Source: Nemertoderma westbladi
Taxonomy: Eukaryota; Animalia; Xenacoelomorpha
DNA length: 64,000 nt
Assembly (NCBI GenBank): GCA_032718475.1
Contig: JAUCBJ010008077.1
Coordinates: 84,189 to 148,188 of the forward strand
Direction of reading: 5' to 3'
Under the pieces are notes generated by a model. That model searched no databases and was not told the DNA's origin. It saw nothing but the letters and a program-made list of their open reading frames with translations. Positions 8,044 through 47,205 of this stretch are shown in pieces. The stretch's first letter is position 1. Each line of letters starts with the position of its first letter. The position numbers and the translations under genes were made by a program.

Positions 8044-8089
8044 TATGTAGTCGCTATCGCTACTCCGAGACGTGGGGGGCTGAATCTCT

Positions 8090-12261: not shown

Positions 12262-12299
12262 ACATTTGAAACACCATGAATTTAACTATCCGTTTTATC

Positions 12300-13864
12300 A
12301 TCGCGTGTCTTTGCGTCGTTCCTTCCGGCATAGGCATCTTCCTATCACTCCTCTGTCGGCTGAAGACATGTAACACGCCATCTGGTGCTCTAATCTGTAT
12401 AGTCTTTTAAGTGAGGCTTTGCTGATGGCTTCCTCCTTCATTATCGAAAAACATATAACCATTCTCTTTTAGAGATCGGCTAGTCACGTCCCAATCGTCG
12501 AGTAAATCGTCGGTAGGGTTCCAAATTCTCCCGATCGACTTTTCATCATCGAAACTAATAGGTTTACCGGTCCAATTGGTCGCGATATCGGTGTCGGTCT
12601 CAAACGTCCCAACTCCGATCCATAATCGAATCGTTTTCGTCAGATATCCTCGCAAGATACAAGGTGCGATATCCGTCCCTGCGCGATCCACTTCCTTAAA
12701 GTCCGTGATATGTGGAGGCACGTTGCGTACGATTTTTTGAACTATTACTTTACGCAACTCGGTTGATTCTAACACATCACCGAAGGTGACCGATGGGAGG
12801 AAATCCAGGTTCGAGATGATCTCCGGGTGTTCAACTATAGGGATCTCGTAAGTTGTCTCCTTCCGGGTCGGTATACTAATAGGAAAACTAGTTGGTCTCG
12901 CAACCGGTACTATCGCTCCAGTAGAATGGGGCTGAGGTTCTCGCGTCATCTCGACATGAGGTATCTGTAGTCTCTGCGACAAACGCTGAGCAAAGGTGAT
13001 ACTATCGAAGAGCTCGGGTGTCATCTCCTTGGGTTCGGTTTGATCGTGGGATATCCAATAGAATGGTAGGCTCGCGAGCCTTCCGCCGAACTCCTCGATC
13101 TCGCCTTTCTCGTACGCCTTGTACGCCCTGTAGAGGCTCAAAGCTTCCCGTTTCTCTTGTGTCGACTTATTAGACTCGTCCACTACCATGCTGTAGACGT
13201 CTGGTTCGACTAATTTAGGTTCGTAAATAACGATCTCACCCGCGTTCGGTCCACTCATTTTAAATGAATGATACGGATTTGTCAAAGGGTATCCGCCTTC
13301 TTGGTAACGTAGACTTTGGTTGTGTGAACATCGCGCTAATATCGGCTCGGGGTTCTCCGAGTTCAACCGCATAGGAATCGCGTTGTTTGCTTGCTCTTGC
13401 TCGCGCATACACGCTCCACATTTATAAAACAGTTTGTATACGGAAAACGCGTCCTTGGTCTCTGGATCCGCTCCTCGAGCGCGTCTATAAAGATGCATTC
13501 CTTAAAATTCGTCTCTAGCTGCAGGTAAGGGTTCGTTTACCGTCAAATATTGCAGCGTATGATACAATCGGCGTATTTCGGTGTCTGGATCCTCGCAAAT
13601 GTCGCTAGCGTCGCATAACGCATCGTAGGGATATAACGCATTGTATTCCGCGCGTAATTCCTCCGTTCTTTTATTGTATGCGTCCAACCGCTGTCGCGTA
13701 ACATTCGGGTCCGCCTTGGATTTTGCGAGCTTGGCTGTACTCCTAGCCATACTCTCCACTCCAAACACACTAAAGTTTTTAGCTCCATAACGATTGAATG
13801 GCGCCTGGTGCTCTTGTTCTTGCGTAAACCCTTGACGTAACTCTTTATACATCTTCTCCGCCAT
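12300..13864 (-). pseudogene. Accessory ORF of element B: unknown N-terminal region plus the start of a DEDD exonuclease
   Basis: ORFs 13502-13864, 12407-13498 and 12167-12376 share one frame, separated by single TAA stops. Ends DW...GYMFFDNEG...TIQIRAPDGVLHVF, matching element C DW...GYMILDDEG...LLHLAAPNGDIFLF. Confidence 0.7.
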
Positions 13865-26603: not shown

Positions 26604-26932
26604 TTACTAGCTAGGGAAGTACCGGGACTTTAATCACCATCTTCGATACCCGCCTTCCGCTTACCATCAATATTCTGTTGTCAATTCCGTGTATCATTTA
26701 TTCATTTATACTATTATACCCGAAGGACTATATACAACGATCAACAAACTCTTTCACCTTTCACACACGGCGGGGACGCGTAGATTAAAAACCGGATAAA
26801 CCGGGATCCTCCCTGGATCCCGTGACAGTGATTAAATCGGAGCTGCTACCCTAGTTAACTACCAGAGTGATTAAAACCAACTGCTGCCCTAAGCTAGATA
26901 CCAACAACACAAACTGACTGCCAGATATAAAG

Positions 26933-29900
26933 ATGAGTCGAACAGGAGAGACGACACCGCCGCGGACCCCGGACGGCGATCTAACGATCCGCGAGGCCGC
27001 GACTAGACGGTATAGACCCGCGACGCCGGACCCATCAGTAACGGGCGATCCGGCAATTCAGGATGAGGGGGGCCGTCTACAACCGGAGAGCGAGTTGGGA
27101 GAAAGGAGAGACAAGTCGGGAGAAGATAAAGACGAGTCGACGCGGAGCGGGGGTCGACGCACCGATGTCGCCGGCCAGCCACAGGCCGAGGGCGACGGAC
27201 GGTCCACCGGAACGGCGACGGTGGAGCCGACGGTACGACGCCGGACCCGGAGAGACGGAGGAGATGTCGGCGAGGAGAACGTCGGGGTCAGCGATCGACT
27301 TTGACGGGCCTACAACGCGGCCCGGAAGATACTTAAAGAGGTCAAAGGAGGGGCGAAGATAGATGAGGTAAAGCTAAGAAAGAGAGTAGGTGAGTCGAAC
27401 GAACATTTCAACTATTTAATGCGCTTTGGGCAGAAAGAACTAGCCGAGGACAGAGCGAGGGGGGTTGCCAGCCAACTGTCTGATCTATGGAAGTGTATGG
27501 GTATGTGGGCTAGTGTAGTGTACATAGGGCCATACTCAGTCAATGCCCGGGGAGTAAAATTAGTGGGTTGGAGGAGACCGCAGGAGGGCGAATCCGAGGT
27601 TAACCCCGAGGATTTGGTCTCGTTGGTCGGAGAAAGTTCAGGGAAAAGGGGGAAGGTCAGTAGGATGGGAAGGCGGAGGGAATCCGTCGTAACCGAAAAG
27701 TCTGCTACATCCTCCGCAAAAGGAAGACGTGTGGCGGAAATAAATCTGGCGTGCGAACTCTATCTAGCAGCACAAAGTCAGAGGGAATACGAGAGACGGT
27801 TAGAGGAAGAGAGCGCGCTGTTAGAAAAGGAGAAAGAACTAATTATAGAAAATAGAGAGAAAGCTGAGAAGGTCGCGAGAAGCTTTAGGGAGCGCGAGGC
27901 GAGAGAGCAAAGTGAGCGTAAGGAGTGTGAAGCGAGAGAGACAGAGTTAATGAAACAGAATTTGCAAGAGGATACAGAGAGAGAGAGAACGGGAAAGCGT
28001 GTGCGGGATGGTATACAGGCCCAGATAAGCGGACTTATTGAGTATCAAACCAGAAAGAAGCGCATATTGGAACTGGCGCAGATGGGGTTGTCAGAGAGTG
28101 ACGCTGGCTCGAGTGCTCTTGAGGGGCCAAGGGTCGTGGAAACATTTATTAGTAACCCACTTACAAGGACCGCACGACAGACCCGAGGACGAGTCGGGAG
28201 TCAAGATGGAAAGATACGAGTTGGGAGGAGAGAGAGACGAGTCGACATACAGCGGCGGTCGATGTGCCGATGTCGCCGGCCAGCCACAGGCTGAGGGCGA
28301 CGAGCGGCCCACCGGAACGGCGACGGTGGGGCCGCCGGTACAGCGCCGGACCTGGAGAGATAGAGGAGATGTGGGCGATGAGGACATCGGGGTAAGCGAT
28401 CGACTTCGACGGGCCTACAACGCGACCTGGAAACAACTGAAGGAGGCCAAAGGAGGGGCAAAGATAGATGAGGTAAAGTTGAAGAAACGACTAAGTCGAC
28501 TAAGTGAGTCGAACAGACATTTTGATTACCTAATGCATTTTGGACAGGGAGAACTAGCCAGCGAGAGAGCGAGAGAGGTTGGCAGAGAACTGTTTGAACT
28601 ATGGGAATCTAGGGGTATGCAGCCTAGTGTAGTGTACATAGGGCCATACTTAGTCGATGCCCGGGGAATAAAATTAGTGGGTTGGAGGAAACCGGAGGAG
28701 GGCGAATCCGAGGTTAACCCCGAGGATTCGGTCTCGTCGGTTGGAGGAAGCTCTAGGAGGCAGGGGAAAGTTAGTAGGACGGGAGGGCGAAGGGAGTCCG
28801 TCGTAACCGATAACTCTGCTACATCCTCCGCAAAAGGAAGAAGGGTGCAAAATATAGATCTGGCGTGCCAACTTGATCTGGCGGCGCAAGACCAGAGAGA
28901 ATTAGAGAGACAGTTGGAGGAAGAGAGTGCGTTAATAGTGAGGGAGAAAGAACTGGTAAGAGAGAACAAAGAGAGGGCCGAGAAGGCCGCGAGAAGCTTT
29001 AGGGAGTGCGAGGAAATAGGAAGGATGGAAAGGAAGGAGCAAGAAGTGCACGAGGCAGAGCGTGAGGCGGAACGTAAAGAGCGTGAAGTGAGGGCGGAGA
29101 GTGAACGTAAAGAGCATGAGGCGGAACGTAAAGAGCGTGAAGTGAAGGCGGAGAATGAACGTAAGGAGCGTGAGGCGGAACGTAAAGAGTGTGAGGTAAG
29201 GGCGGATAATGAGCGGAGAGAACGTGAGGAGAGGCGACTTAAGAGAATCGAGAGAGAGACAGAGTTGGCCGATCAAAGTTCACGGGAGGGTACAGAGAGA
29301 GAGAATGAGAGAAAGCGTGTGCATACCAAAGATGGTATGCACACGCGGATAAGGGAGCTTATACAATATCAGACGAAACAGAAGCGCCGACTGGCACTAG
29401 CACAGATGGGGCTATCAGGGAGCGAGAGTGGCTTGAGTGTTTGCGAGGGGCCAGGAATTGGGGAAACATTTATTAATACTCCACTTACAGGGACCACACG
29501 ACAGACCCAAGACTGGTGTGACCGTGCGGGCGGGGGGGGGGGGTAATAATAATATAATAATAATACAGTAGATAGCGTTAATATTAATAGTACCGTATTA
29601 GATAATCCTAACCAAACCTTTATTCCAAGAAATATTTTACCTAGTAGTAGTAATTTAAACTTAAATGCAATTAACCCAAATAATTTAAATAATAATCCGA
29701 ATTCGAATTTACAAATTAATCCAAATAATTTAAATAATGATCCAAGCCCGAATTTGCAAAATAATTAAAATAATCCTATCTCGAACGAACAAAATAATTA
29801 TGTTTCTAATTTTGGTGCACAAAATAATTCAGGTGAACTAGAGGGCCAAATTGGCGACAAATACAGTGGTCTATTAACGTGAATGTGTCGGACATACACA

Positions 29901-32900
29901 ACCCAGCAAACGGGGGCCTGGTAGGCAGGAAGTGGCGGGGTTAAGCCAACCCGTCGGGGGCCTGGTAGGCCACGTAGTTGGTAGGCAGGAGGTAGCGGGG
30001 TTGAACCAACCCGAGGTGGGCCTGGTAGGCCACGCAATAGTAGAGAGAGAGGCGGGGGTGAACGGACCCAGCCGTAGTAGAGACAGTGCGTCGACTAGAG
30101 AGGGGTGTAGAGGTGAAGTGAGAGATAGTGAAGTGAAATGTGGCGAGTGGGGGGGGTGGGCTAGGGGCGCCCCACCACGACAAATTAGTGGCGAGAGAGG
30201 GGGGGGCAGAGAGTGTCCCACAGGCGTCGGCAGATAATGCGCGGGCCGAGACAGGTAAACCGCAACACCCGGCGACGGAGAGTAATAGGGGGATTGCGAG
30301 TATCCCCAGCGGCGTGCGATCGGGCAGAGAGAGGCAGGTTGACGTCGCGAGAGGGCGGACGAAGCGTCGAGCCCAGTCAGAAGAGGGAAGAAGAACAGTG
30401 GAGTTTAACCGGGAGATGGAGGAGAGATCTCACGAGCGGGAATACTGCACTGGAGAGAGAAGAAGAGAAGAAAGTAGAAGAAGTATCGCTGCGGGCGATA
30501 GGAGAGCGAGGACGGATACCGAGCCGTCGATAGTCGAGATGAGAACGGAAAGTCGGTGGGGTCGAACTTCGGGAGATTGCCGTCGCCCCGGAGAGGCGCG
30601 ACCTGACGAGGCGCACTACGCGCCGATAGAGGGGTACGCGATGTACCGACACGAGAACGAGAATAGTGGAGGGGGTCGAAGAGAAACTTTCCGGCGGGAT
30701 ATAACTACCGATCGAGAATACGGTAGCCGCAGGGAGGATTACTCGAGAAGATTAAACTTCGATCCCGAGCGACACATACAGACTGTAGGACATACTGTAG
30801 GCCTTACTGCACATACCATAGGCCATGCTGACAGGAATAATGTAGGTGATAGGATAGCGCGGACGACGGAATTAAACCCGGAAGTCGCGGAGTACATACC
30901 GGCGGGTAGGCCAGGAGCTGGTAGGCCTATACCGGTACCAGCACAGCAATATGACTACAGCATGCAGGGACATAACATATACCCAGGGGAGGGGGGGAAT
31001 TATTGCGGATAGGTGCATGGGCCCCAATATATTAACATCAACCCCAGTACCAAGCATACCGGTGGGGGGGGGGGGGACAGGGTGACATTCCCCCATCACA
31101 ATATCAACAATATACCCCGATAGGAGTAAGAACAACGAGACCCTTGGATGAAAACAGATCATGCGACACAGAAATATGGAGGGGGCCGCTACCCCCAATG
31201 ATATACCCTAGCCAAAGGAAGGTAGGAAATAGGACGGACGGACCACACCCAACAGGAGAAACTATACAACATCCATCGAACCCATTGGAAGCGCAGGCGA
31301 TGGGGATGGCCACGTTGATCGATGCGTTAAAAACTAGGATCGAGTTACCACCCATGGAACCGTTTAAATTCGATGGGAGTAGGCCGGAAGAATACCTACA
31401 GTTTCGGCGCATGTATAGTAATGAAATACTGACAAAGAACTTGACGCAGGCGGAGTGCCTAAAATATCTGCAAGTATATACAGGAGGCCCAGCATACGAC
31501 ATCGTGAGGCAATACCAGGGCATAGAGGGTGGCTTCACGACGGCATGGCGGGCACTGGACAGGGAATACGGGCACCCGGCCAAGATCATCTGGCAAACCC
31601 TGAGGGGCATAACATAGGGTGGCCTACAGGATAATCCCGTTAGCATAAAGATAATCGCTAACAAAGTCGAGAAGGCGCTAATCGTGCTAAAGACGCTAGA
31701 CGCGCCATACGAACTCAACGCGTCCAACAACATCACCACGATAGCGCAGGCGCTACCGATGTGGCTGCGCAACAAGTGGAGGAAGATCGCTTTCTCCACT
31801 CGAGATAGGAAGGGTGCAGAACCAGGTTTAGAAGAAATGTCGAGCTTCTTGAACTACGAAGCCGAATTAATAACCGACCCAGTCTATAGCGAGGGAATTC
31901 CCTGGGAAAGGGACCAAGAACCGACTACCATAGACCGAAACCAGAACACAACACGTCAAACGCATTACCAAAGCTCAGGCAATCATTGCCATACGCAGCG
32001 ACACAGGGGACTGCGAGTCCACAGGTAGCCGGGGGTAAGACCACATCATGGAGCGGACAGGGGAGGGATAACAACACAAATAAATATAACCCCAGTACGC
32101 CCAATAGGCCGAACCCAAACAATAAGAATAGTAGGGACTTGGTACAAATGCAGCTGCGATACGCGATGCACTGTACAAGGATGGCTACGACCCAAAGAGC
32201 AAATGCCAACTACATACAAATGCGCATCATCGAACCATGAACTGTAGCTACTGGCAAGCACTACCCAGGGAAGATCAGATAGAGTACGCGGCTAAAAACG
32301 AGATCTGCTCGCGATGTGTCATGAGTGGACATAGAGCTAGGCAATGCAAGGAGACTCCAATTAAGTTCGGTGAAGGGAAAGGCCAAACGATGGCAACGAG
32401 CACAGTAGGGGCGAAGAAGAGAGGAATGGTGCTGCTTGGGGTGGTACCAGTGCGAGTGATTGGAGAAGGCAATCGATCAGTGACCACGCTGATGCTGGTC
32501 GATAGTGGAGCTGCCTTCACATTAGTTGAAAATTAGGTGGCCGAAGAGCTAGGATTGAGAACGAGGCCAAGTAGAATGGTGGTGACAACGATATCTAGCA
32601 AAGATGAGGTCCTGGAGATGAGGACCGGACGGTGCGCAATTGCAGCAGTGGCAACGGGATGCTGTGATGCAACGGGATGCTGTGATAGAGTCAATAAATA
32701 TCAATGCCAGGCGACCAACCAACATCGAGGTCGAGCAATATAAATTCCTGGACGATATCGACTTCTCAATCCCAGAGGTGGACGTCAGGAAGGTATCCAT
32801 CATAGTAGGAATGGACTGCCCGACGGCCCATGAAAGAATGCAAACGGTCTTCGGTGAAGACAAGCAGTGTGATCCGGTGGCGATATTGACGCCGTTCGGG

Positions 32901-35900
32901 TGGACACTGAGTGGCCCAATTAAGAGTAAGATACCATTTAGGATGTCGGAGACATCGGGATGCATGTTCGCGGGAACTATGCAAGAAATAGGGGATGAGA
33001 GAGCGGAGGAACAGCTCAAAAGACTGCTCAGGCAAGATTTTGAGGGACTAAAGGAAACCGGGGTCGGAACCTCGGTAGAAGACAAACAGGCTCAGCAGAG
33101 CGTAGAGGAATCTATGAGATGCGATGAGGGGCGGTATACCATAGGAATGGTATGGAAGCTACCAAAGCTACCACTGCCCGATAATAAAGCGGTGGTACTC
33201 ACGAGGCTTCGTAAGTTGAAACAGACATTAAAACGGAGCCCCGAAAAGAATGAGTACATTCATAAAACAATCAGAAAGTACGTCGAGAAGGGATCGGCCG
33301 TGGAGTTACCGGTCGACGAACCAAACACGGACAGGACATATTACCTACCACTCCACGTGGCTTTAGATCCGAAGAAAGGTAAATTGCGGATGGTAGTGGA
33401 CGCATCGGCAAAGACCGCCGGGAAATGCCTAAACGACTATCTGCTAGAAGGTCCCAACATATACAACTCAGGGATAGAGGCCCTACTCAGGTTTAGGAAT
33501 GGAAAACACGCCTTCACCTGTGACATATAGGCATGTTCAACCAAGTCCATGTGACGGAAGAAGATAGCGACAGTCAATGCTTCCTATGGTACGACGGCGA
33601 CGTGGAACCGTCGACAATACCGATGTACAAGATGATAGTACAGAATATGGGAGCCAAGTCGTCTTCTTTCACGACGACTATGGCCGTAAGAGACACAGTA
33701 AAGGGAAAGGAAGATAAGTACAGCACTAGAGCCGTCGATGTGATTCGACGCGGCTTCTACGTAGACGACGGGATGGAGTCTGGAAATACGGTTAAGGAGC
33801 TACTGGACACGGGCGCGAGGTTCGCGACATCCAAAAGGGATCCGGCTTCAACCTAACCAAATTCCAATCCAGTTCGAAGGAATTTATCGAGGCGATAAAA
33901 GATGAGAGACCAGGATCGACCATGGATAATCCCACAACAGCCAAGGGGCAGGACATGGCGAACAAGAGAATAGAGTCTCAACAGAAGGCACTGGGAATTG
34001 TGTGGGACAGAGAGACGGACGAACTGAAGTACCAGTTGAGTCAGGAGGGCGCAGATATCCATACAAAGAGGGGCTATGTGTCGTACATATCAAGGATATA
34101 TGATCCCCTAGGCCTAGCATCCCTACTACTAGTCACGGGGAAACAGATACTCAAGAAAGTGTACAAGCTAAAGGACGAGTGGGACGCAGAGGTCCCGGAA
34201 GAGATTAGAAAGCAGTGGTATAAGTGGACAGAGAGCCTGGAGCAGATGGGAACATACAGCATGTCACGAGTGTATTTCCCGGATGGGGACATGACGAATC
34301 TGGACCTACACATGTTCTCCGATGCGTCGTTAGAGGCATACGGAGCGGCACTCTATTTAGTACAACGAGAGGGGGCTCGCAAACCCAGACTCGCCTTCAG
34401 CAAAGCGAAGTCAACGCCACCAGATTCAGCATCAGTTCCCAAACTAGAAATGACAGCTGCGAGACTAGGAGTTAGGGCTACAGCCTACCTAATGGATGCT
34501 ATTCCCAACATAGTGGAGACGCACTACTGGACGGATTCCATGGTAGTGCTTGGTTGGCTACATAACGAAAGGACAAGATACCCTATATTCGTCGCGAATA
34601 GGGTGGATGAAATAAGGGCGATCACAGAACTGGGAAGGTGGCACTATTGCCCAACGGACGAGAACCCTGCGGACTTGTTATCAAGGGGCATGGTACGCCA
34701 CACTTTCTTGAAGAAGGAAGTATTGTGGCAACACGGGCCACAGTTTCTGATCGATAGGGAGGCCTGGCCACCGATGAGAAAGGTGGACCCGGGCTCAGGA
34801 GAAGTTGTGTTAGAAGGAGAAGAGGGAGATTCAGAGGGAGAAGAGATATACTCCCAGATGGTGAGGGAGATTAGGGACGTGCAACCAAAACCAGGAGAAC
34901 TGTGCGATAACCCGATGGATAAACTCCTTAGCTACAGTTCTAGTTGGTACAAGACCAAGAAATTAGTGGCGTACTGGAGAGCCTTCGGTAATTTCCTCAG
35001 GGGAGTTGGCAAAGACGTGAAGGTTAGAATGGCAATAGATCCGGAAGGAGCGGCTAAAGCAGTCATCCGCTACGAGCAAAAGAAGAACTACGGCGACGAG
35101 GTGGAGCGCGTCGATAAACAACAGCATCTCCGACGGGACAGCGAGCTGATCACGCTGTCGCCACAACTTAATGATGACGGGATCCTAGTAATGAATTCTA
35201 GGGTGGGATACAACAACAGTATCGTTGTTCCACCGAAGCCCATCATCATCCCCACAGGATCGCCGATAGTCCACCAGATTATTTGGGACTCCCACAAGTC
35301 GATATTGCACGAGGGCACCAACCGAACCCTCACGGAGAAAAGGAGGACCTTTTGGGTCAAACAGTTGAGGAAGAAGGTAAAGGCGGTAGTGGGGCAGTGC
35401 CAGACCTGCCGACGAGCGAAGAAGGAGCGAGCCATACAGGAGATGGCACCACTACCAGCGAGTAGGGTAAGACAGCACGACCCGCCATTTACACATTGCG
35501 GTGTGGACATATTCGGGCCGATAAAGATCAAAGTGATGCGGCACACGGAGAAACGCTACGGTATTATCTTCGTATGTAATAACACGCGGGCGGTAGGGAT
35601 AGAACTCGCCCAGGACGCAACCGCATCGGCATTCATTAATGCCTTAGAGAGGTTTAGAGACCGCAAAGGTGGGACAATCGCAGTAATATACTCCGACAAC
35701 GGGACCAACTTTGTGGGGGCGGAGAACGAAATGGCAGAGGCCTTGGATATCTTGGAAGGAGAGGAAGTCAGGGCAGCCATGAGGCGACGACAAATAAAAT
35801 GGGAGAGGAGGACGCCGTATGCACCGCATACCCTAGGATGCGTCGAGAGACTCGTGGGTAGTTCAAAGCGTCTGATGACGAAGTTGATGAACACCCATAT

Positions 35901-36402
35901 GGTTACGGAGGACGTGCTAAGGACAGTACTTGCGAAGTGTGAGGGTATCATTAATAGCAGACCGCTATATCCAGAGAATGATGACCCTGAATCACTAGAC
36001 GTGCTGACGCCAAGCCATTTCCTAATGGAAAGGCCAGTGACCATCGACATGCGGGGTGTAGACCCAGATGACATACACTCACGCCAGAGTTGGAAAGTCG
36101 CTAAGACGATAAGCGCAGAATATTGGAGAAGATGGGTTGAGGAATACCTACCCATGCTTCACAGAAGAAGTAAGTGGAGGAAGACGAACAGAGAGCTGAA
36201 AGTGGGTGATCTCGTGATCGTCACGGATGATACCATCATCAACAACCAGTGGCGGTTGGCGAGAGTTGTAGGCACTTACTCCGACGAGGACGGAAGAGTC
36301 CGATCGGTAGAAGTGCGGATAGGTGGCAAGATAGGTGCAAAAGACAGGAAAACCTACAGAAGGGCTGTAGGGAAGTGTTGTCTTCTAGAGGGAGCACCTT
36401 AG
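26933..36402 (+). pseudogene. BEL/Pao gag-pol of element C with several stops and frameshifts; RH-IN stays open at 33922-36402
   Basis: PFKFDG (Gag), CSRCVMSGHRARQC, LVDSGA, YYLPLH, FYVDD, HMFSDAS, NPADLLSRG, GVDIFGP, YSDNGTNF, CVERLVG. Confidence 0.92.
27050..29515 (+). repeat. Diverged tandem duplication of the Gag N-terminus (~1.1 kb and ~1.3 kb copies)
   Basis: DVAGQPQAEGD, SVVYIGPY, SEVNPED, SATSSAKGRRV and ETFI..PLT each occur twice. Confidence 0.9.
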
Positions 36403-36559
36403 TGTAGAGTATGAGAGGAGTTTAGTCGCCCAAATTTTGGACTGAGGGGGGTGGGATTGAGGGCGAGACGCCCTTCCCACACAAAATAAAATAAAAAAAA
36501 AAAATAATAACAAATATAAATAATAGGTACGCAGTAAGTAGGCAGATAGAAGTTAGTTA

Positions 36560-37110
36560 GTTGAGTTAGATAGAGGTTAGTAAGAGGGTACGTAGTATCG
36601 TCAGTTAGTTAAGTGGAGTTAGAGGTTAGTAAGAGGGTACGTAGTACCATTAGTTAGAGAGTTAGTAAGAGTTAGAGGGTACGTAGTACCGTTAGTTAGA
36701 GAGTTAGTAAGAGTTAGAGGGTACGTAGTACCATTAGTTAGAGAGTTAGAGGGTACGTAGTACCGTTAGTTAGAGAGTTAGTAAGAGTTAGAGGGTACGT
36801 AGTACCGTTAGTTAGAGAGTTAGTAAGAGTTAGAGGGTACGTAGTACCGTTAGTTAGAGAGTTAGTAAGAGTTAGAGGGTACGTAGTACCGTTAGTTAGA
36901 GAGAGTAAGAGTTAGAGGGTACGTAGTACCGTTAGTTAGAGAGTTAGTACGAGTTAGAGGGTACGTAGTACCGTTAGTTAGAGAGTTAGTAAGAGTTAGA
37001 GGGTACGTAGTACCGTTAGTTAGAGAGAGTAAGAGTTAGAGGGTATGTAGTACCGTTAGTTAGTTAGAGAGAGTTAGAAGTTAGTAAGAAAGTACGTAGT
37101 ACTAGTTAGT
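36560..37110. repeat. 42-bp minisatellite between integrase and the accessory ORF
   Basis: Unit gttagagggtacgtagtaccgttagttagagagttagtaaga, about ten copies with degenerate flanks. Confidence 0.92.
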
Positions 37111-37572
37111 AAGAGATAGAGGTAGAAGGGTATATATAGTATAGATATTAGTCAGTAGTTAGTAGCGAGAGGGGGGCATATGAGTACAGCTGGATAAATC
37201 GTGTAGGCCGCGCGACATATACTGTTGAACTGCACAAGCCCACAGAGTAGGCCAGAATGTGGATTAGGAAATAGAACAATCCATAGGCAATAGTAAGTAG
37301 TAGGACAGTAGAATTAAAAATTAAGTTAAAATAAAATAAGAATAGGGCTGAAAATTAGCAAATGATGGTAACAGTAGGAAAGAAATTCTGGAACATAATA
37401 AAAGTAACTGACAAAATTCGCAATTTAGGTACAATTTGGTAGCTACAGAAATAAAGCAGTGTAAAATAGGCAATAACTCAGAAATTCAGAGAGAGATAGG
37501 CCATCAAACTGAAATAAACCATCTAAACCTGTCACTCATCCTATAGCGCCTTGGTAAGGCACCACCCAAAGG

Positions 37573-39771
37573 GTGAGCGATCGGGCAGAGTTCGAGATGG
37601 CAAGCAAACTTGTGCGAAAGAGAAAGGCGGAGCAAGGAGGAAAGGAGATACTGGTGGATTTCACCAAGAGGCATCCGGAAGAGAGGACGAGGGGATACTA
37701 TGACCAGTTAGAAAAGGGTCACGCAGCACGAGCGCTACAGGACCACTTCAGGGAGATGCATGAACAGCGACTGGTAGGGACCTACGGGACGCCGTCGCTG
37801 GACAACGTGATCTTCGAGCATTTCCACTACGTGGTGAAAGGAGACGAGGCGAAGTTCGGGATTCCGAAGTACACGAGAGAGTCACCGAGGAAAGATTGGA
37901 AGAGGTTCATAGAGTCCGTCAACAGGGGAGGATACATGATCCTAGACGACGAAGGGACTGTGGAAGATGAGGAGGGTTCAAGGAGAGGATCGGTGGGATC
38001 GGCTAGAACCATACTCCTACATTTGGCCGCGCCAAATGGGGACATTTTCCTGTTTGACCTGGGAACGTATGGGAAGAAGGATGGGCCGAAGTTGGACCGG
38101 CTGCCGAGGGCGGTGCAGGTCCTAATGAGGGAGAAGTCGACGACGAAAGTGGGATCGGCCATTCGCAACGACGCGGAGAGAATCATCGGTCCGGACGCCA
38201 CCAACCTCCTGGATATGCAGAAGGTCTTCATGGCTATGACAGCACCAGACGGGTTGGGACTAGTCGAGAACACAGGCCAATGCGGAGTGGTGGCAATGGG
38301 TCAGCTATTGGGGCTTGTATGTCACAAACCGATGGACTGGGGGAAGTTCAGGGAAGAATACGGAGCAGAACTAGCGAACTCGCTGAAGTGGGGAGCGAGA
38401 CCGGGAAAGTAAGAGGTGTATCAATTCCGAAGAGGAGCAATAAAGGTATATCAGAAGCGATATATCCTGCAGGAAGATTGGATAATGATAAGTTTGCTTA
38501 ATTTATTCATAACCGTGGTTATCGAGAGGGAACCAGCGGCATTTCTGTTATCGGGATCACCCCTAAGCTACAGAAGAGCCTTTAAGACGGCTTTCGATGG
38601 TCTGGTAGACCACCCGTAGCTGAAGGGCGAGTCGGTGTACTACAACAGCCGACATCTGATAGACGGGGGGATAGATACGCCGTATCAGAGATGGGAGGAG
38701 CTAGAGACGGATAGACGAGAGGCGAAGCGACTGGAAGAAGTTGCTAGACGGGAGAGGAGAGAAGCAGAGGAAAGGGAAGAGGAAGCTAGGACGCAGAGCT
38801 ACTGCTTCGAGGAACAGGCGGGCCTAGACGAACTTCGTTGGACTTCGTCAGAGAGTTCGGGGGAGTCTCTAGGGCGAGAACTGGGATGGACGGTGGGATC
38901 ACCGAGACAGTCGACGTTGGGGTTGCAAGCGATGCCCATACCAGCGGGCGCCGAGGGCGACCAACCGCTGAGGAAGTTAGGGGAGCTAGAGGGATGGAGA
39001 GCTACGGGCGAGAGCCAAGGCGGGAAGGCACATAGTGGATCCACCGGGATACCGGGGTTGGAGCCGCTGCCAGAGGAGGACGAAGACGACGACGAGTTCG
39101 GAGAGATGCCACCCATCGGGAGGATCGGCCACTCGGACACGGGCTGGGTTGGCGGGAGGGTGGTGACGGCCAGTGGGGCGAGGGCCTTCTGGGATAGACC
39201 CAGCAAGCGGGCCTGGGTGCACGAGGAGCCGGCGATGGATTTCGCGGGGAGCACTATCAGGTTGGGCAAGCAACCGGGGACGGCACCACGAGTAGTATTC
39301 GGGGAGACGATGCCCGAGAGGGGCGAGGAAATCGACGTAGACAGGGACACTAACGTCCGGAAGTTCGCTTACCAGCGACTCCACAGACCGCGGAGATCGC
39401 TTGGGACGAGGGACGAGGTGGGGCGGGAGACATTGGTACTCGGTTGTGATTACTGTGGGAGACAGACCCACCAGGAAAGGAGCTGTTTGTACCGGTTCCA
39501 GAAAGGGACCTTTTGTCTCTATTGCCGCGAGTCGAGCCACAGGATGGGGGCGTGTCCAAGGTTGCATAACTGATGTTCGAAATGTAACTTTCGGGGACAT
39601 TACGGACGCCAGTGCGACTGGATGGACGACGAAGAGAAGTTTAGGGTCTTCGAGGAATGGGCCGATGTCGGGGCGATGACTCGGCAACGTATGAAGGCCC
39701 AGGAGTTCCGGTGGGGCTTTTTTAACATCAATCAGGAGGCTCACATGGAGATTATCAAACGGAGGCTTCCG
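37573..39771 (+). pseudogene. Accessory ORF of element C: DEDDy-type 3'-5' exonuclease plus triple CCHC knuckle
   Basis: ORFs at 37573, 38416, 38635 and 39622 share one frame with three single stops. Motifs ILDDEG (ExoI), LLHLA..IFLFDL, LP..V..LM....TKVGSAIRND (ExoII), LLDMQ, YQKRYILQED (ExoIII-like); knuckles at 39445-39616. Confidence 0.75.
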
Positions 39772-40280
39772 TTTTTTTTTTTTTTTTTTTTTTTTTACAT
39801 TAATATTTCTTTAATTACGGGCAAACAGGGCAAAGCCCTATATCCTGCCCTCACGGGTTTGTTACATGATACACCACCAACAAATTCATGATAAACATAC
39901 TATTATTAAATATAGATATATTATTTCTGTACAGACAGATATTTGCAGCGCATACCCAACACGAGCGCCGGTGAAAACCTCACAGTTACAATCCTAGTCA
40001 TAGCTATGGCTAGTCTAGGCTATTGTATATTCCACAATTACCCTACATACATAGTTAACAAGAAGTGTAGAAGAGCAAAGTTAAATTAGATATATTACAT
40101 ACAACAAATAATTGTGCGTTGTTATACTGTACGTACATATAAATAGTTCCAACACGAAAGTGAATGCTCTCAATTTATTCACAGTATATTTAGGTCCAAA
40201 AATACATTTGATTAGAAGTGCTAATTTATTTATTAATTTGGAATTTTTTGTAGTTCTCTACACACTAGAGCCTTTATAGT

Positions 40281-41768
40281 TTATATTTCAACTGAGCTAA
40301 ATCGTTTAGAGTCCAATATATATTTTGATACCGCATTAATAAGTTTGTTCAGATCCTTACATTTCTGGCCGTATAGGATTGATTTTAATGTGATTGGTAA
40401 GTTTAGTGAGTTTAATTTGTCAACTAGGTTATGGCGGTGACTGGTGAATTCGGTGCATGAAAAGAAAAAGTGGTCTGGTGTTTCTCTGGTATCTAATCGG
40501 CAGAACGCACACGTAGGGTTATCACTCAGGTGTCTATTAACCATATGGTCTGCAAGACAACTACGTTCCAGGCGTAGCTGGGCCAGAATAATCTGCACCG
40601 TTCGCGTGCCGGCATTAAAATAAGGATTGTCCTTTATAGTATTGGACAAACTGGATTTAAGTAAATGTGGCAACTTTGCCTGCATAGTAGATGAAAGTGA
40701 GTTCCAGGCACTGGTTGTTGAAGGGAAAAACGAGTTAAGATACAGTGATTTATGTGCCGAGAATGAGGTAAAATTTGTTTCGTTTCGAAGTTGGTATCTG
40801 TGTCCGTCACCTACCTGGGGTGGCAGGAGGTCAGTCAGGTATGCTGGGGCATGGCCGTGCACTATTTTACTCAGTGTTACCAAACAGTTGTTATTCCGGC
40901 GAGTAGATAAAGGTTGTATATTACACTCGTCGTACAACTTGACGTGTGATGTTCCCCGTGGTGCCCCAGTTGCCACACGTAAAACTTGCAACTCGAAGTC
41001 ATCGAGTGCATCTGACTGTTCTTTTGTAATGTTACACCAGACAACATTACTATATTCTATGACCGGTCTAATATATGTTTTGTATATGGTCAGTATGGTC
41101 TGCCGTGGTAGCTTGTACTTAAGGCATTTTAAGGTTGCTAACTGTGGTGCTACCTTATCTAAGATATGTGAAACATGATCGGCCCAGGTAAGTGTAGAAT
41201 TAAGTACTTCCCCTAGATGCTTGTGTGTATCTACATTATCGAGCTGTTCGCCCATGAGATATAGGCTATGCTGTAGATGTGATTTGTTGGCTGGGATGGT
41301 CATAGTATGAGTTTTATCTGGATTAAATTTAACAAACCAATTGCAGGCCCACCTGTGGAGACTATTAAGTTCTGAATTCATAAAATGAGCAGAAACTGCA
41401 GGATGGGCAATTATACTGTAGATAGTAGTGTCATCTGCAAAAAGTGATACATTAGCTAACAGGACAGAGACTAGATCGTTGATATAAACTAGAAACAGCA
41501 AAGGTCCGAGGATACTTCCTTGGGGGACCCCCGCTTCGATCAGCCTTAGCACTGATTCTTTTCCATCAAGTACAACCCTAAGAAATCTATTGTTCAAATA
41601 ATCATAAAACCAGTTAAGGAGGTTCCCACGAATCCCCGCTCGATGTAGTTTGTATACCAGACCCCGGTGCCAGACTCGGTCGAAGGCTTTCGAAATATCA
41701 CAGAAAATTATACGAACGCCATCGCCCTCGTCCCAGGTCTGGCACCAGGAATGGTATAAATGGAGCAA
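40281..41768 (-). CDS. LINE ORF2 RT core and C-terminus (out of frame with the upstream part after a small deletion at ~41790)
   Basis: FCDISKAFDRVWH, GVPQGSILGP, LFADD, HKHLG, C-terminal CAFC..ETPDHFFFSC. The usual segment between CLSK and GDS (with QxGF) is missing. Confidence 0.93.
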   Translation of the reverse strand: MLHLYHSWCQTWDEGDGVRIIFCDISKAFDRVWHRGLVYKLHRAGIRGNLLNWFYDYLNNRFLRVVLDGKESVLRLIEAGVPQGSILGPLLFLVYINDLVSVLLANVSLFADDTTIYSIIAHPAVSAHFMNSELNSLHRWACNWFVKFNPDKTHTMTIPANKSHLQHSLYLMGEQLDNVDTHKHLGEVLNSTLTWADHVSHILDKVAPQLATLKCLKYKLPRQTILTIYKTYIRPVIEYSNVVWCNITKEQSDALDDFELQVLRVATGAPRGTSHVKLYDECNIQPLSTRRNNNCLVTLSKIVHGHAPAYLTDLLPPQVGDGHRYQLRNETNFTSFSAHKSLYLNSFFPSTTSAWNSLSSTMQAKLPHLLKSSLSNTIKDNPYFNAGTRTVQIILAQLRLERSCLADHMVNRHLSDNPTCAFCRLDTRETPDHFFFSCTEFTSHRHNLVDKLNSLNLPITLKSILYGQKCKDLNKLINAVSKYILDSKRFSSVEI

Positions 41769-41790
41769 CTGAAAGACACAGCTGTCGCCC

Positions 41791-44700
41791 CTATTTCGAT
41801 AAGCAACATAAAAGTGAAATCGGTCTGTAATTTGAGCTTAAATGAGGTTCGTTTTTTTTATAGACTGGTATAACGTTACTGGTCTTCCAGCAGTCCGGGA
41901 AAATTCCTAAACGTAGAGACAAATTTAAAAGTGTGAGCAGAATAGGAATCAATACCGGAGCTAGGAATTTAATTGTTCTATTGCCTATACCATCTGGACC
42001 TATAGCTTTATTAGGATTAAGGTCATTAATTGCCTCAGCTATATCCTCATGGGTTAGTTCAATATCTTCTAATAACGCTTCAGATTCTTCCTGGTGATTG
42101 GTATTATTGGTATTGATACCGAAAGTTCCAAAATGCTGACTATCTGGAGTACCAAGAGTACCAATAGGATGACTAGTACCTGGAGTACCGAAGGTTCCAA
42201 TAGGCTGACTTCCTGGAGTACTAATAGGATGACTAGTACCTGGAGTACCGAAGGTTCCAATAGGCTGACTTCCTGGAGTACCAATAGGATGACTAGTACC
42301 TGGAGTACCGAGGGTTCCAATAGGCTGACTACATGGAGTACCAATAGGATGACTAGTACCTGGAGTACCGAAGGTTCCAATAGGCTGACTTCCTGGAGTA
42401 CCAATAGGATCACTAGTACCTGGAGTACCGAAGGTTCCAATACGCTGACTACCTGGAGTACCAAGAGTACCAATAGGATGACTAGTACCTGGAGTACCGA
42501 ATGTTCCAATAGGCTGGCTACCTGGAGTACCGAAGGTTCTATTAGGCTGACTACCTGGAGTACCAAGAGTACCAATAGGATGACTAGTACCTGGAGTACC
42601 GAATGTTCCAATAGGCTGACTACATGGAGTGCCAAAAGTACCAATAGTCTGACTACCTGGAGTACCAAGAGTACCAATAGGATGACTAGTACCTGGAGTA
42701 CCGAATGTTCCAATAGGCTGGCTACCTGGAGTACCGAAGGTTCTATTAGGCTGACTACCTGGAGTACCAAGAGTACCAATAGGATGACTAGTACCTGGAG
42801 TACCGAATGTTCCAATAGGCTGACTACATGGAGTGCCAAAAGTACCAATAGTCTGACTACCTGGAGTACCAAGAGTACCAATAGGATGACTAGTACCTGG
42901 AGTACCGAATGTTCCAATAGGCTGGCTACCTGGAGTACCGAGGGTTCTATTAGGCTGACTACCTGGAGTACCAAGAGTACCAATAGGATGACTAGTACCT
43001 GGAGTACCGAATGTTCCAATAGGCTGACTACATGGAGTGCCAAAAGTACCAATAGTCTGACTACCTGGAGTACCAAGAGTACCAATAGGATGACTAGTAC
43101 CTGGAGTACCGAATGTTCCAATAGGCTGGCTACCTGGAGTACCGAAGGTTCTATTAGGCTGACTACCTGGAGTACCAAGAGTACCAATAGGATGACTAGT
43201 ACCTGGAGTACCGAATGTTCCAATAGGCTGACTACATGGAGTGCCAAAAGTACCAATAGTCTGACTACCTGGAGTACCAAGAGTACCAATAGGATGACTA
43301 GTACCTGGAGTACCGAATGTTCCAATAGGCTGACTACATGGAGTGCCAAAAGTACCAATAGTCTGACTACCTGGAGTACCAAGAGTACCAATAGGATGAC
43401 TAGTACCTGGAGTACCGAATGTTCCAATAGGCTGGCTACCTGGAGTACCGAAGGTTCTATTAGGCTGACTACCTGGAGTACCAAGAGTACCAATAGGATG
43501 ACTAGTACCTGGAGTACCGAATGTTCCAATAGGCTGACTACATGGAGTGCCAAAAGTACCAATAGTCTGACTACCTGGAGTACCAAGAGTACCAATAGGA
43601 TGACTAGTACCTGGAGTACCGAATGTTCCAATAGGCTGGCTACCTGGAGTACCGAGGGTTCTATTAGGCTGACTACCTGGAGTACCAAGAGTACCAATAG
43701 GATGACTAGTACCTGGAGTACCGAATGTTCCAATAGGCTGACTACATGGAGTGCCAAAAGTACCAATAGTCTGACTACCTGGAGTACCAAGAGTACCAAT
43801 AGGATGACTAGTACCTGGAGTACCGAATGTTCCAATAGGCTGGCTACCTGGAGTACCGAAGGTTCTATTAGGCTGACTACCTGGAGTACCAATAGGATGA
43901 CTAGTACCTGGAGTACCGAATGTTCCAATAGGCTGACTACATGGAGTGCCAAAAGTACCAATAGTCTGACTACCTGGAGTACCAATAGGATGACTAGTAC
44001 CTGGAGTACCGAAAGTTCCAATAGGTAAACGCACAGATGGAATGTGCTTAACTAAATTAGTTATATGTGACTGCTCGGCAAAAAATGTACTTAAGCATTC
44101 AGCCTTGTCTTGGGCCTCTGTATGGACCTTATCGCCGTCAATTAAGAATGGTATGCGTAGTGTTTTAACACGACCGAGGGTAGCATTAACGACACTGTAC
44201 CACTTCTTTGGGTTAGACCTTGTACCATCCTGCAGCTGACTATATAAGATTTTATCATGTTCTCTTTTTGAAACTTTAACTTGTTCTTGCACATAATTAC
44301 GAAAATGTCTAAATTGTTTCCAGGACTTCGAATTGTCTACCGTACCTTTTGCCCTACTATGAAGCTTTTCCCTACGGCGGAACAACGCCCGTAGGTTAGC
44401 ATTAATCCAAGGTGGGTCTGACTGACGTGTTTTAACTACTTTATTTTTAATAAATTGAGTTCTACCTTCGATAAGTACCCGAGTAAGTTGTTTTGCTAGC
44501 ATATTTGGGTCGTTCTTTATAACATCATTGAAACATGTATTTGAATCCACATAGTTACTGTAACCATGCCAATCAGCAGTTTTATATAACCAATGCGTGC
44601 GTGAATGTAACGGGGGTTTTTTTATGTTAAAATTAAATATAGCTAAGGTTGGGCAGTGATCAGAAACCTCCCGAACAGGATCACCGAAAAACAACTTATT

Positions 44701-45483
44701 TGGTACTTGAGAGGAAGATAAAAATGGATGAAGGTCAGAAAAAATTAGATCAATACAGGATCCAGACGCCGGTCTAGTAATTTTGTTAATAAATTGTTTG
44801 GCATTTAAGGAGCAGCAGAATTGTTGTATAATTAGTGGAGCGGAATTTAGACAATCGGTGTTAAAGTCTCCCAAAAGTATAAAACCACTATATTTCTGTG
44901 ATTGAAGTACAGTAGTGATTTTATCTTGTAGGTCAAGCCAGAACGCCTGAGAGGGGCACGTTGGAGTGTACCCGCACACAAATAATATTTTGAGTTTATT
45001 AACCCAGACATCAATAAATATTAATTCACAATTTGATGTGGAGACATTATATTTGGGTCGGTTAATATGTGGGAGGTCTTCCCTTATGAGAAATCCTACT
45101 CCACCATATCCTGAATTATCACTCCGTGGATTAACATACAAACGATATCCCGGGAACTTTTCCTCCAGTTGCTCACTTTTACATGTATTCTTTTTAAGCC
45201 AAATTTCAGAGAGTGCAATAATATCACATTCCTTTTCATTGAAGAAATTGTTCAAGGAATCGATTTTAAAATTTGGATTTTCTGTTGGAAATAAACTACG
45301 TACATTGAGGTGAGCAATATTAAAAGGCCCGGGATTTTGTTCAATATCACCGGAAAGCAATAACCTTTGTGTTGGGACTAACGATGAATATATATTTTGC
45401 ACACATCCACAAATATACGACCTACGCTGGTTAAATGGTGTGGAAAAACAATTCAGTGTGCTGCCGGTCAGCGACTCCACCAC
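41791..45483 (-). CDS. LINE ORF2 N-terminal part: 2A-like peptide, APE endonuclease, repeat insert, start of RT
   Basis: SGDIEQNPGP, HLNVRSL, IALSEIWL, GGVG, LLGDFN, IDLIF, SDHCP, KAIGPDGI, NYRPISLL. Confidence 0.92.
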   Translation of the reverse strand: MVESLTGSTLNCFSTPFNQRRSYICGCVQNIYSSLVPTQRLLLSGDIEQNPGPFNIAHLNVRSLFPTENPNFKIDSLNNFFNEKECDIIALSEIWLKKNTCKSEQLEEKFPGYRLYVNPRSDNSGYGGVGFLIREDLPHINRPKYNVSTSNCELIFIDVWVNKLKILFVCGYTPTCPSQAFWLDLQDKITTVLQSQKYSGFILLGDFNTDCLNSAPLIIQQFCCSLNAKQFINKITRPASGSCIDLIFSDLHPFLSSSQVPNKLFFGDPVREVSDHCPTLAIFNFNIKKPPLHSRTHWLYKTADWHGYSNYVDSNTCFNDVIKNDPNMLAKQLTRVLIEGRTQFIKNKVVKTRQSDPPWINANLRALFRRREKLHSRAKGTVDNSKSWKQFRHFRNYVQEQVKVSKREHDKILYSQLQDGTRSNPKKWYSVVNATLGRVKTLRIPFLIDGDKVHTEAQDKAECLSTFFAEQSHITNLVKHIPSVRLPIGTFGTPGTSHPIGTPGSQTIGTFGTPCSQPIGTFGTPGTSHPIGTPGSQPNRTFGTPGSQPIGTFGTPGTSHPIGTLGTPGSQTIGTFGTPCSQPIGTFGTPGTSHPIGTLGTPGSQPNRTLGTPGSQPIGTFGTPGTSHPIGTLGTPGSQTIGTFGTPCSQPIGTFGTPGTSHPIGTLGTPGSQPNRTFGTPGSQPIGTFGTPGTSHPIGTLGTPGSQTIGTFGTPCSQPIGTFGTPGTSHPIGTLGTPGSQTIGTFGTPCSQPIGTFGTPGTSHPIGTLGTPGSQPNRTFGTPGSQPIGTFGTPGTSHPIGTLGTPGSQTIGTFGTPCSQPIGTFGTPGTSHPIGTLGTPGSQPNRTLGTPGSQPIGTFGTPGTSHPIGTLGTPGSQTIGTFGTPCSQPIGTFGTPGTSHPIGTLGTPGSQPNRTFGTPGSQPIGTFGTPGTSHPIGTLGTPGSQTIGTFGTPCSQPIGTFGTPGTSHPIGTLGTPGSQPNRTFGTPGSQPIGTFGTPGTSHPIGTLGTPGSQRIGTFGTPGTSDPIGTPGSQPIGTFGTPGTSHPIGTPCSQPIGTLGTPGTSHPIGTPGSQPIGTFGTPGTSHPISTPGSQPIGTFGTPGTSHPIGTLGTPDSQHFGTFGINTNNTNHQEESEALLEDIELTHEDIAEAINDLNPNKAIGPDGIGNRTIKFLAPVLIPILLTLLNLSLRLGIFPDCWKTSNVIPVYKKNEPHLSSNYRPISLLCCLSK
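42117..44025. repeat. In-frame minisatellite (33/36-bp units; 102/204-bp higher order) inside LINE ORF2
   Basis: Encodes repeats of PIGTLGTPGSQ and PIGTFGTPGTSH with no stop over ~1.9 kb. Confidence 0.97.
45325..45363 (-). other. 2A-like (StopGo) ribosome-skipping motif
   Basis: LLLSGDIEQNPGP matches D(V/I)ExNPGP directly upstream of the APE domain. Confidence 0.85.
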
Positions 45484-46028
45484 CGCCCAGGAGTTGTCAA
45501 AAACTAAGAATTTTAATTTTCAGAGTATTAAAACGTGAGAGAACTGGTCGATGGAGGTGCCAATCGGCAGCACACAATACAATTATGAAAAGACTGCGGA
45601 GAGGAAGCCACCAAGGCGCCCAGGGTAATACGCAAATGTCCGTCAATAGGTTTAAGATACAGTACATAACATTTTGTTCAAATGGTGGTGTTTTTAGATA
45701 ACAAAACCCTATTTTATATAAAGTTAATAAGCTGTTGCTGGGCTGGAAATTCAGGCCACAAGCAAACAAGGTACTTAGAAGTAAAGTTTCTAAAAGTTTC
45801 TTTGGACCTACACCTAATATAAAACTTCGTAATCCTACATTGGATAGTTCCATTCCAAACACAGGCTCGAGTACCAGTCAGTAGTCCTTTTCCCACCATT
45901 GTTTAACTTTCTCCCTTACATTCATATGTATAATGCGATAGTATATATTACTTACTAATTTAGGGTATAGGGATGATTATTGCAAGTCGCTGAACCTATA
46001 CTGTATACGGGGACCGATCTAGGATCAA

Positions 46029-47063
46029 TCATTCTCCTTCAGAAACACTGTTGTAGTACGATGAGCCCGACGATCTACCGGTTAAGGTCCCGTCGGTTTC
46101 TTCCTCCTCAAGGTTAACCGTGCTGCTCCTCGACCTCGTTGAAATCATGTGAGAGTTAGGAGTTCCCGATGCAGCCTTTCTCCCTTTTCCTGTAGGGGCG
46201 GCTGTTCCACGGCTGGTACTCCTGGCGTTGCTGGATGATTTGTTGTTCCGGGGAATCCTCGTGTTCCTCCTCGCGCGATTGAATCCGACTCGTATTCGTG
46301 GTCTTTGCTTCCTGGCTTGCCCAAGAAGCTCTTGTAGAATCATGTAAGTCGACGGTATCGGGATGGGTGGTGGAGAACCCTCCGGGAAGATGGATCTGAG
46401 ATCCTCAAATGTTCCAACAGTTAAACCGTCGTCATCATCCTCGTAATGGGTGATTATAATGTCGCCGTTGATCACATGAGCACTGTAGATGGCTCCTTTC
46501 TTCTTTAGCTCCTTCGCGAATTTAAGCAGCTTCATCCGATACGGAGTTAGTTGATCTGACAGATAAACGCCTTTCGGTAGGTTCCTTAAGTTGCGGAAAG
46601 CCTCCGATCTGGCACTGTGGCCGATAAAGCGCACGATAATTGGTCGCGATAAGCTCGCGTCAGCGGAAGATTTGGGGAATTGACCTAGGCGATGGCAAAC
46701 GTCGATTTTATCGGTATTAACATTCAGATCGGTAAGGATGTCCTTCACCAATTTCAGACAGGAATCACGCGACTCGTTGGCGGACTCACTAACACCATGT
46801 ATAAGCACACAGTTACGACGGTAATATTGATTCTGTTGATCACCGGACAAGAACATTTCTAGGAGAAGTTCTCTTTGGCTATAGACTTCATCTTTAACCT
46901 CGTCGACTCTTGCATTTATGAGATCGAGTTTGTGAGTAATATCCTTATGAAATTTCTTGTTTTCCTCGCTTAGATCCCTGAATTGGTTAGACAAGTCTTT
47001 AATAGCAGCGCTGATTTGATCGTTTGAGGTAGTTTTCCCTTCGGATTGTTTCGTAGGAGGCAT
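46029..47063 (-). CDS. LINE ORF1 (coiled coil plus L1-type RRM/CTD RNA-binding protein)
   Basis: QYYRRNCVLIHGVSE, IDVCHRLG, RPIIVRF, VYLSDQLT. Confidence 0.9.
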   Translation of the reverse strand: MPPTKQSEGKTTSNDQISAAIKDLSNQFRDLSEENKKFHKDITHKLDLINARVDEVKDEVYSQRELLLEMFLSGDQQNQYYRRNCVLIHGVSESANESRDSCLKLVKDILTDLNVNTDKIDVCHRLGQFPKSSADASLSRPIIVRFIGHSARSEAFRNLRNLPKGVYLSDQLTPYRMKLLKFAKELKKKGAIYSAHVINGDIIITHYEDDDDGLTVGTFEDLRSIFPEGSPPPIPIPSTYMILQELLGQARKQRPRIRVGFNRARRNTRIPRNNKSSSNARSTSRGTAAPTGKGRKAASGTPNSHMISTRSRSSTVNLEEEETDGTLTGRSSGSSYYNSVSEGE

Positions 47064-47205
47064 GTTCTGTATTGTGATTGGTTTTTGGTCAGCTTACTGC
47101 ATACTGATTTAGGGGGGTATTTAGGCTACCGGTACTGGTGTTTATCTACAGTTCATACCTACCGGTATCAAGCCTATATATATACGGTTTTCTACTTTTA
47201 TGTTG

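Follow-up and report, generated by a model that had tools for sequence, protein, structure and literature searches.

A predicted DEDDy exonuclease joined to three zinc knuckles in the third open reading frame of a Bel/Pao retrotransposon from Nemertoderma westbladi

The stretch of Nemertoderma westbladi DNA analysed here (64,000 nucleotides of contig JAUCBJ010008077.1, assembly GCA_032718475.1; hereafter the window) contains a Bel/Pao retrotransposon, element A, followed by a third open reading frame, ORF3a, whose 3' end is interrupted by a LINE. The locus is organised as follows:

26918..29546, + strand: coding region upstream in element A, ~0.8-1.1 kb of which is tandemly duplicated (27107-27899 versus 28212-29013, 82% identical)
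30137..36402, + strand: frameshifted gag-pol of element A, comprising gag (DUF1759), protease, reverse transcriptase, RNase H (Peptidase_A17) and integrase (rve, DUF5641)
36403..37596, + strand: non-coding spacer between pol and ORF3a; it contains a 42-bp tandem array (~36553-37086), and an AG at 37545-37546 is a candidate splice acceptor (by eye)
37597..39772, + strand: ORF3a, the third ORF of element A, with at least 724 codons, three stops and a 3' end cut by the LINE
39772..47093, - strand: LINE, foreign to element A, that interrupts ORF3a at its 3' end; it has a poly(A) tail, an RVT_1 ORF and ORF1

Pfam searches of element A identified the Bel/Pao marker domains Peptidase_A17 (E 1e-38) and DUF5641 (E 3e-24) together with Integrase_H2C2 and rve, with DUF1759 lying upstream, and its ORFs contain the protease motif DSG and the reverse transcriptase motif YVDD. 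Both the PR-RT-RH-IN order and the Bel/Pao-type domains are present, and judged from its sequence element A is a member of Bel/Pao (Belpaoviridae). The preliminary description of this DNA had named a Bel/Pao host, and Peptidase_A17, DUF5641 and DUF1759 bear this out. As in other Belpaoviridae, gag, the PR-RT-RH-IN order and the marker domains are accompanied by a third ORF after pol (PMC8742986 and PMC3118150, accessible text). The duplicated upstream unit is a coiled-coil-rich coding region, present in two tandem copies ahead of the gag core, which brings element A to at least 12.8 kb, as against 4.2-10 kb in the Belpaoviridae profile (PMC8742986). The 42-bp array in the spacer between pol and ORF3a (36553-37086) differs in length among copies of the element. 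No LTR of element A was found within the window: none was among the 20 of 31 repeat families listed, and 23401-27000 shares no repeat with the remaining sequence.

The reading frame of ORF3a and its place after the integrase are directly visible. Open from 37558 and with a first ATG at 37597, the frame continues on the + strand for 724 codons up to 39768, with three in-frame stops (38410, 38617 and 39571) versus 35, 18, 21, 18 and 24 over the same span in the other five frames. The integrase ORF of element A ends at 36402, leaving a gap of 1,195 nt to the ATG. These values match the frame of about 730 codons with three stops, some 1.2 kb after the integrase, that had been noticed earlier. ORF3a has no introns and is without its own 3' end here, as it enters a 25-nt poly(T) (39772-39796) that is the tail of the minus-strand LINE.

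The gene content of the Belpaoviridae is given as gag, pol and env only (ICTV profile, PMC8742986), and ORF3a had been described as occupying the env position. The place after the integrase stands; because no LTR of element A was found to frame ORF3a, this place is all that defines the position as that of env. The protein itself is not env-like: in the part that is seen, which lacks the 3' end, hydropathy and family searches found no signal peptide, transmembrane anchor or fusogen homology, in agreement with the preliminary description. Its N-terminus is basic, not hydrophobic, and contains the sequence KLVRKRK, which is possibly a nuclear signal. The peak 19-residue Kyte-Doolittle mean is 1.57, in the helix after YILQED, and nine of the 12 cysteines lie within zinc knuckles. 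The following segments were recognised, with residues numbered from Met:

37882..38556, + strand: predicted DEDDy 3'-5' exonuclease domain, ~residues 96-320, from the ESM Atlas, profile alignment and guided model
37945..37953, + strand: Exo I, D117-x-E119 (ILDDEG), with the D and E columns invariant in alignment A5
38170..38172, + strand: Exo II Asp, D192 (KVGSAIRND), with the K and D columns invariant
38461..38478, + strand: Exo III, Y289-x3-E293, then D294, with Glu in place of the Asp of bacterial relatives
38620..39444, + strand: charged helix and acidic Gly/Glu-rich linker, from the sequence, with a helix at 360-396 in the single-sequence model
39445..39615, + strand: three CX2CX4HX4C zinc knuckles (39445-39486, 39514-39555 and 39574-39615), exact pattern
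39649..39723, + strand: Trp/Phe segment 3' of the knuckles (FEEWAD...WGFF), which aligns with the same region of ORF3c

All of the motifs quoted in the preliminary description are present in ORF3a, and the three CCHC knuckles reported there follow the exact pattern from their starts at 39445, 39514 and 39574. The knuckles and the order of the motifs are read from the ORF directly.

Standard searches with ORF3a returned no exonuclease family match in Pfam (PF01612 was not hit), PHROGs or NCBIfam, and phmmer found no true sequence relative among 1.84 billion representative proteins. Its sole match, the repeat protein P0002, was rejected as only 18 residues were matched. Word-index sequence searches gave no matches among 7988, 2736 and 104 scored candidates, and no relatives turned up among 98 candidate stretches of metagenome contigs, among 16 stretches of viral contigs searched with a C-terminal query, or in phages. 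A sequence search of the PDB with the core of ORF3a gave a single match, attributed to chance. Such ORFs are probably under-counted, since they are invisible to Pfam and phmmer.

Set against these blank ordinary searches are three weaker lines of evidence that all point to a DEDDy domain, namely the ESM Atlas, profile alignment and the invariant columns of an alignment. In the ESM Atlas, the top match of the first 271 residues is a cluster named 'Werner syndrome-like exonuclease', with 180 of 256 features in common and a score of 0.94, where shuffled proteins reach 0.9 in 4-10 per 100. Of the 30 ORF3a matches, 25 bear the same family set as this cluster, and PF01612 is found on 38% of the cluster's members. 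Using hhalign, Exo I and Exo II were aligned with a six-sequence Pol I exonuclease profile over 90 columns at a score of 25.4, which none of 90 shuffles reached (maximum 20.8; reversed sequence 10.6), at an hhalign probability of just 7.6%. The middle of ORF3a and its W-x-x-R-P segment align to RNase D (E 0.06). Against a set labelled '59', which still included low-scoring NrnC-like rows, the score was 16.6 (0 of 60 shuffles, maximum 16.4), and the NrnC-like profile gave E 0.46. With bacterial RNase D and NrnC-like HMMs, ORF3a did not rise above shuffles, 195 of 1000 of which reached the RNase D score. The bacterial 'WRN-like' set of 40 sequences is apparently mostly NrnC-like; eight of its rows matched their own profile poorly, and a row of RNase D was discarded; all of these still formed part of the HMM and hhalign comparisons.

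Alignment A5 comprises 49 rows (bacterial RNase D, NrnC-like and Pol I domains plus the query; 48 of the 60 fetched loci were used). D117, E119, K184, D192 and Y289 of ORF3a all fall in its invariant columns. At the final catalytic column ORF3a has Glu293 at +4 and Asp294 at +5, with Y289 kept, in a register taken from a low-identity alignment. The DEDDy motif order claimed at the outset is thus upheld by the Exo I D-x-E and the following Exo II D in invariant columns, by the shuffle control and by the Atlas.

Modelled without an alignment, ORF3a reached a pLDDT of 35 and matched no exonuclease; the LOV domains and helical bundles that were matched are meaningless at this pLDDT and were set aside. 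Guided by A5, the model reached a pLDDT of 70.7 and a pTM of 0.70, and its top fold matches are trypanosome RNase D and then, in third place, EXD2 (E ~1e-4, TM 0.32-0.54), a partly circular result as the RNase D and NrnC families were supplied to the model in the alignment. The eukaryotic enzymes nonetheless outrank both E. coli RNase D and NrnC, which stand for two of the families that fed the alignment, and EXD1 and Egalitarian are among the matches from rank 19 down.

On this evidence the domain very probably adopts the DEDDy exonuclease fold. Its predicted fold group and its motif order are those of the animal proteins WRN, EXD2, Mut-7 (Nibbler), EXD1 and Egalitarian; these are host genes, with 12-18% identity to ORF3a, and no subfamily is assignable. 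A DNA-acting enzyme in the manner of WRN, EXD2 or Pol I proofreading would trim or proofread cDNA ends, or degrade single-stranded by-products of reverse transcription. Such a role seems improbable to us: ORF3a is separate from pol, its W-x-x-R-P segment aligns with RNase D, and the top fold match, which is also the matching architecture, is an RNase (TbRND). These points are set against the Pol I exonucleases as the best profile match of ORF3a, the WRN-like name in the Atlas and the place of EXD2 in the fold search.

In Trypanosoma brucei RNase D (TbRND; PDB 7C42 series), as predicted for ORF3a, tandem CCHC knuckles come after a DEDDy exonuclease (PMC7797062, accessible text). TbRND heads the PDB matches of ORF3a in the sequence search (E 0.17, to the knuckles alone) as well as in the fold search (E 1e-4). 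As far as the accessible text goes, TbRND is a cellular enzyme that trims guide RNAs and has four knuckles, a canonical DEDD and a linker of 28 residues, whereas ORF3a has three knuckles, a Glu in the last catalytic position and a linker of ~270 residues (PMC7797062). As identity is 15-18%, the two have a common architecture and not a demonstrated descent. RNA binding by TbRND comes from its knuckle domain, which also greatly enhances cleavage by the two-metal DEDD site, and an Asp is required at the Exo III position where ORF3a has Glu (PMC7797062, accessible text). The solved trypanosome enzyme, with its RNA-binding knuckles, provides a structural template for ORF3a.

The Glu at Exo III appears to be a trait of the family, because the majority of other copies carry a silent change in this Glu codon, and with Glu for Asp at the last catalytic position the ORF3a exonuclease may not be fully active. 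This residue also bears on whether the DEDDy fold could serve mainly as an RNA-binding adaptor, like EXD1 and Egalitarian, with little or no cutting, and hold, protect or route element RNA, for example to the germ line. EXD1 is a nuclease-dead RNA adaptor (PMC4712191, accessible text), and Egalitarian keeps DEDDy, but mutating it affects neither RNA binding nor function in vivo (bioRxiv 2025.08.03.668247, accessible text). Both are among the lower-ranked fold matches mentioned above, and ORF3c, described below, retains the knuckle module only. Unlike EXD1, which has SDLN/AELE (PMC4712191, accessible text), ORF3a keeps D, E, D and Y; the distant ORF3b also keeps D-x-E, and the DEED variant of bdelloid rotifers is counted as intact by its authors (PMC5408684, accessible text). 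We consider the adaptor role rather unlikely, and prefer that of a cutting enzyme.

Contigs of other copies, from four runs (three samples), cover every bin from gag through 39770. In run X2 the summed depth, which is not a copy number, is 29,000-55,000 across pol, 25,000-50,000 across ORF3 and just 190-360 in the LINE tail, so that pol and ORF3 are of the same order and ~100x the LINE tail. No contig among those of the other copies bridges the integrase and ORF3. Copies of the ORF3a region range from more than 99% alike down to less than 90%.

Forty of the 687 differences among copies were listed, 29 of them in ORF3a. At these tool-picked, partly linked ORF3a sites a third-position bias is seen directly: the sites segregating among copies lie at the third codon position in 14 of 15 cases (binomial p 2e-6), versus 5 of 14 for the sites near-private to the local copy (4/5/5 over the codon positions; Fisher p 0.002), with the 0.9 cut-off that splits the two classes chosen after the sites were seen. 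This is the pattern of a selected gene whose local copy has decayed neutrally, and it suggests that ORF3a is likely under selection in related copies. Among the differences listed, two of the three ORF3a stops are not common to most other copies.

Two side observations concern particular classes of contig. One class of copies, present at low depth in three runs, has lost 37615-38751 and with it the entire nuclease domain; its knuckle region is retained. Contigs of run X5, a run whose labelling as DNA is a guess, have loose 5' ends at 37385 and 39182 that we take to resemble a template-switch cDNA adapter; if X5 is cDNA, a transcript may start ~210 nt before the ORF3a ATG, which is a weak hint.

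Two other Bel/Pao elements in the window, B and C, also have an ORF after the integrase:

12284..13864, - strand: ORF3b, the third ORF of Bel/Pao element B, with ~500 codons of no family and then an Exo I region; two stops; cut at the junction with a gag fragment
7039..8490, - strand: ORF3c, after the integrase tail of the internally deleted Bel/Pao element C, with a frameshift near 8150, three knuckles and the Trp segment

The pol of element B is 31-34% identical to that of element A, and ORF3b starts ~0.7 kb after the integrase. The segment GYMFFDNEG...IQIRAPDG of ORF3b aligns with GYMILDDEG...LHLAAPNG of ORF3a at 27% identity (score 61, 2 of 2000 shuffles); because this match was picked from a permissive tblastn list, the position of ORF3b carries part of the weight. 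None of the bacterial exonuclease HMMs gave ORF3b a score. Some 450 codons precede its Exo I, far more than in the N-terminus of ORF3a, and this region had no meaningful match in PHROGs or NCBIfam.

The knuckle module of ORF3c aligns with that of ORF3a at a score of 84 (0 of 2000 shuffles). No exonuclease was seen in ORF3c, and in the ESM Atlas it matched zinc-knuckle clusters only, all below 0.9. Its C-terminal tail is basic. ORF3c may be a version of the ORF3a accessory gene that lacks the nuclease. As no nuclease is visible beside its knuckles, and 37615-38751 is absent from a minority of ORF3a copies, the nuclease is not universal; the third genes of elements A, B and C look modular.

These comparisons bear on whether ORF3a could be a piece of a host gene or some unrelated insertion that lies behind the integrase by chance, or its exonuclease likeness a coincidence. 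That no LTR was found around element A, that no contig joins integrase to ORF3 and that standard profile searches came back empty would fit such an origin, which we nevertheless regard as very improbable. Contigs of other copies together cover gag to 39770, with pol and ORF3 at like depth, ORF3a is intronless, the same motif stands behind a second Bel/Pao integrase, and the third-position bias points to selection. Selection in the copies and the recurrence of the motif behind a second Bel/Pao integrase make a one-off capture unlikely. The proposal that this is a recurring accessory gene and not a one-off host fragment thus gains support from the other copies that cover the ORF, the ORF3b motif and the third-position bias.

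Related third genes have been described in bdelloid rotifers, in which the LTR elements Juno and Vesta, and Athena/Terminons, carry an RNase D-like DEDDy ORF3 (Rodriguez, Kenefick and Arkhipova 2017, PMC5408684, accessible text), an account that is repeated in reviews (PMC5718144, PMC6431247, PMC6338049, accessible text). Like ORF3a, the bdelloid ORF3 is a separate ORF after pol that replaces env, has a predicted RNase D-like DEDDy domain and no transmembrane segment, shows Glu for one catalytic Asp, and has been assigned the same possible roles in 3' processing and silencing (PMC5408684, accessible text). The two differ in that the bdelloid motif is DEED while ORF3a has Glu at the fourth position, and in that the accessible text does not describe CCHC knuckles on the bdelloid ORF3, of which ORF3a has three (PMC5408684). 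The bdelloid LTR clades named in that text are Juno, Vesta, TelKA and Mag, none of which is Bel/Pao (PMC5408684). Sequence searches with ORF3a did not return the bdelloid Juno, Vesta or Athena sequences. Juno and Vesta are Ty3/gypsy-like.

The preliminary description knew of no earlier account of this architecture. That the kind is undescribed is not supported, as DEDDy ORF3s of bdelloids are published (PMC5408684, accessible text) and an exonuclease with CCHC knuckles is the layout of TbRND (PMC7797062, accessible text). The novelty lies in the Bel/Pao host, in the fusion to three knuckles, in Glu at the Exo III position and in an occurrence in two families that are distant from each other. 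There is no exonuclease in the accessible parts of the ICTV profile (PMC8742986), and the word 'exonuclease' has 0 occurrences in those of a metazoan survey of Bel/Pao (PMC3118150). No report of an exonuclease ORF in Bel/Pao was found in the full-text literature; Repbase entries, subscription journals and supplements could hold one. The bdelloid DEDDy ORF3s have been a rotifer oddity since 2017, and the Bel/Pao case, in two distant families of one genome, indicates that such capture recurs across LTR superfamilies.

Weighing these lines, we think it probable that ORF3a is the decayed third gene of a Bel/Pao element, and that its predicted DEDDy exonuclease and knuckles grip single-stranded RNA and trim its 3' end to the benefit of the element. 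As copies likely keep ORF3a under selection, it is likely an accessory gene of the element's own. ORF3a would be expressed from its own message, probably a spliced one because it is a separate ORF, and spliced messages are typical of ORF3s (PMC5408684, accessible text); candidate splice acceptors lie 40-50 nt 5' of the ATG in both ORF3a and ORF3b (by eye). By analogy with TbRND, the knuckles would bind single-stranded RNA and the exonuclease domain would then trim the 3' ends. Catalysis would presumably be of the two-metal type and use D117, E119, D192 and E293 (or D294) together with Y289.

If ORF3a is a nuclease, its target may be host silencing RNAs, their precursors or slicing products, and it would then act in counter-silencing. 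We put this forward tentatively, and favour silencing small RNAs because a dispensable, selected and separately expressed gene fits a counter-defence. Trimming of the element's own RNA by the same nuclease is only slightly less likely, and other targets account for what is left. Mature piRNAs are methylated at the 3' end and may resist trimming. Few animal retrotransposons are known to encode tools of their own against small-RNA silencing. In a wider and more speculative scenario, which we regard as unlikely, an old unrecognised Bel/Pao lineage would have swapped env for a modular knuckle-tethered RNase that suppresses piRNA/siRNA silencing by chewing guides or precursors. This gene would have persisted in families whose pol sequences are identical at only about one-third of positions, and the same nuclease-plus-knuckle design would have been gained independently by Gypsy elements.

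Other repeats in the window have features of their own. The LINE that cuts ORF3a contains, in its ORF2 (42050-44050, - strand), an in-frame tandem expansion of ~2 kb, made of GTPG-rich units with periods of 33-102 nt and lying between the N-terminal region and the RT. A fourth Bel/Pao element (53762-64000) has 1.49-kb LTRs that are 98% identical and an intact gag-protease ORF of 1397 codons, with pol deleted to the integrase tail. It is adjoined by a 40-bp satellite of ~168 copies (47208-53762).
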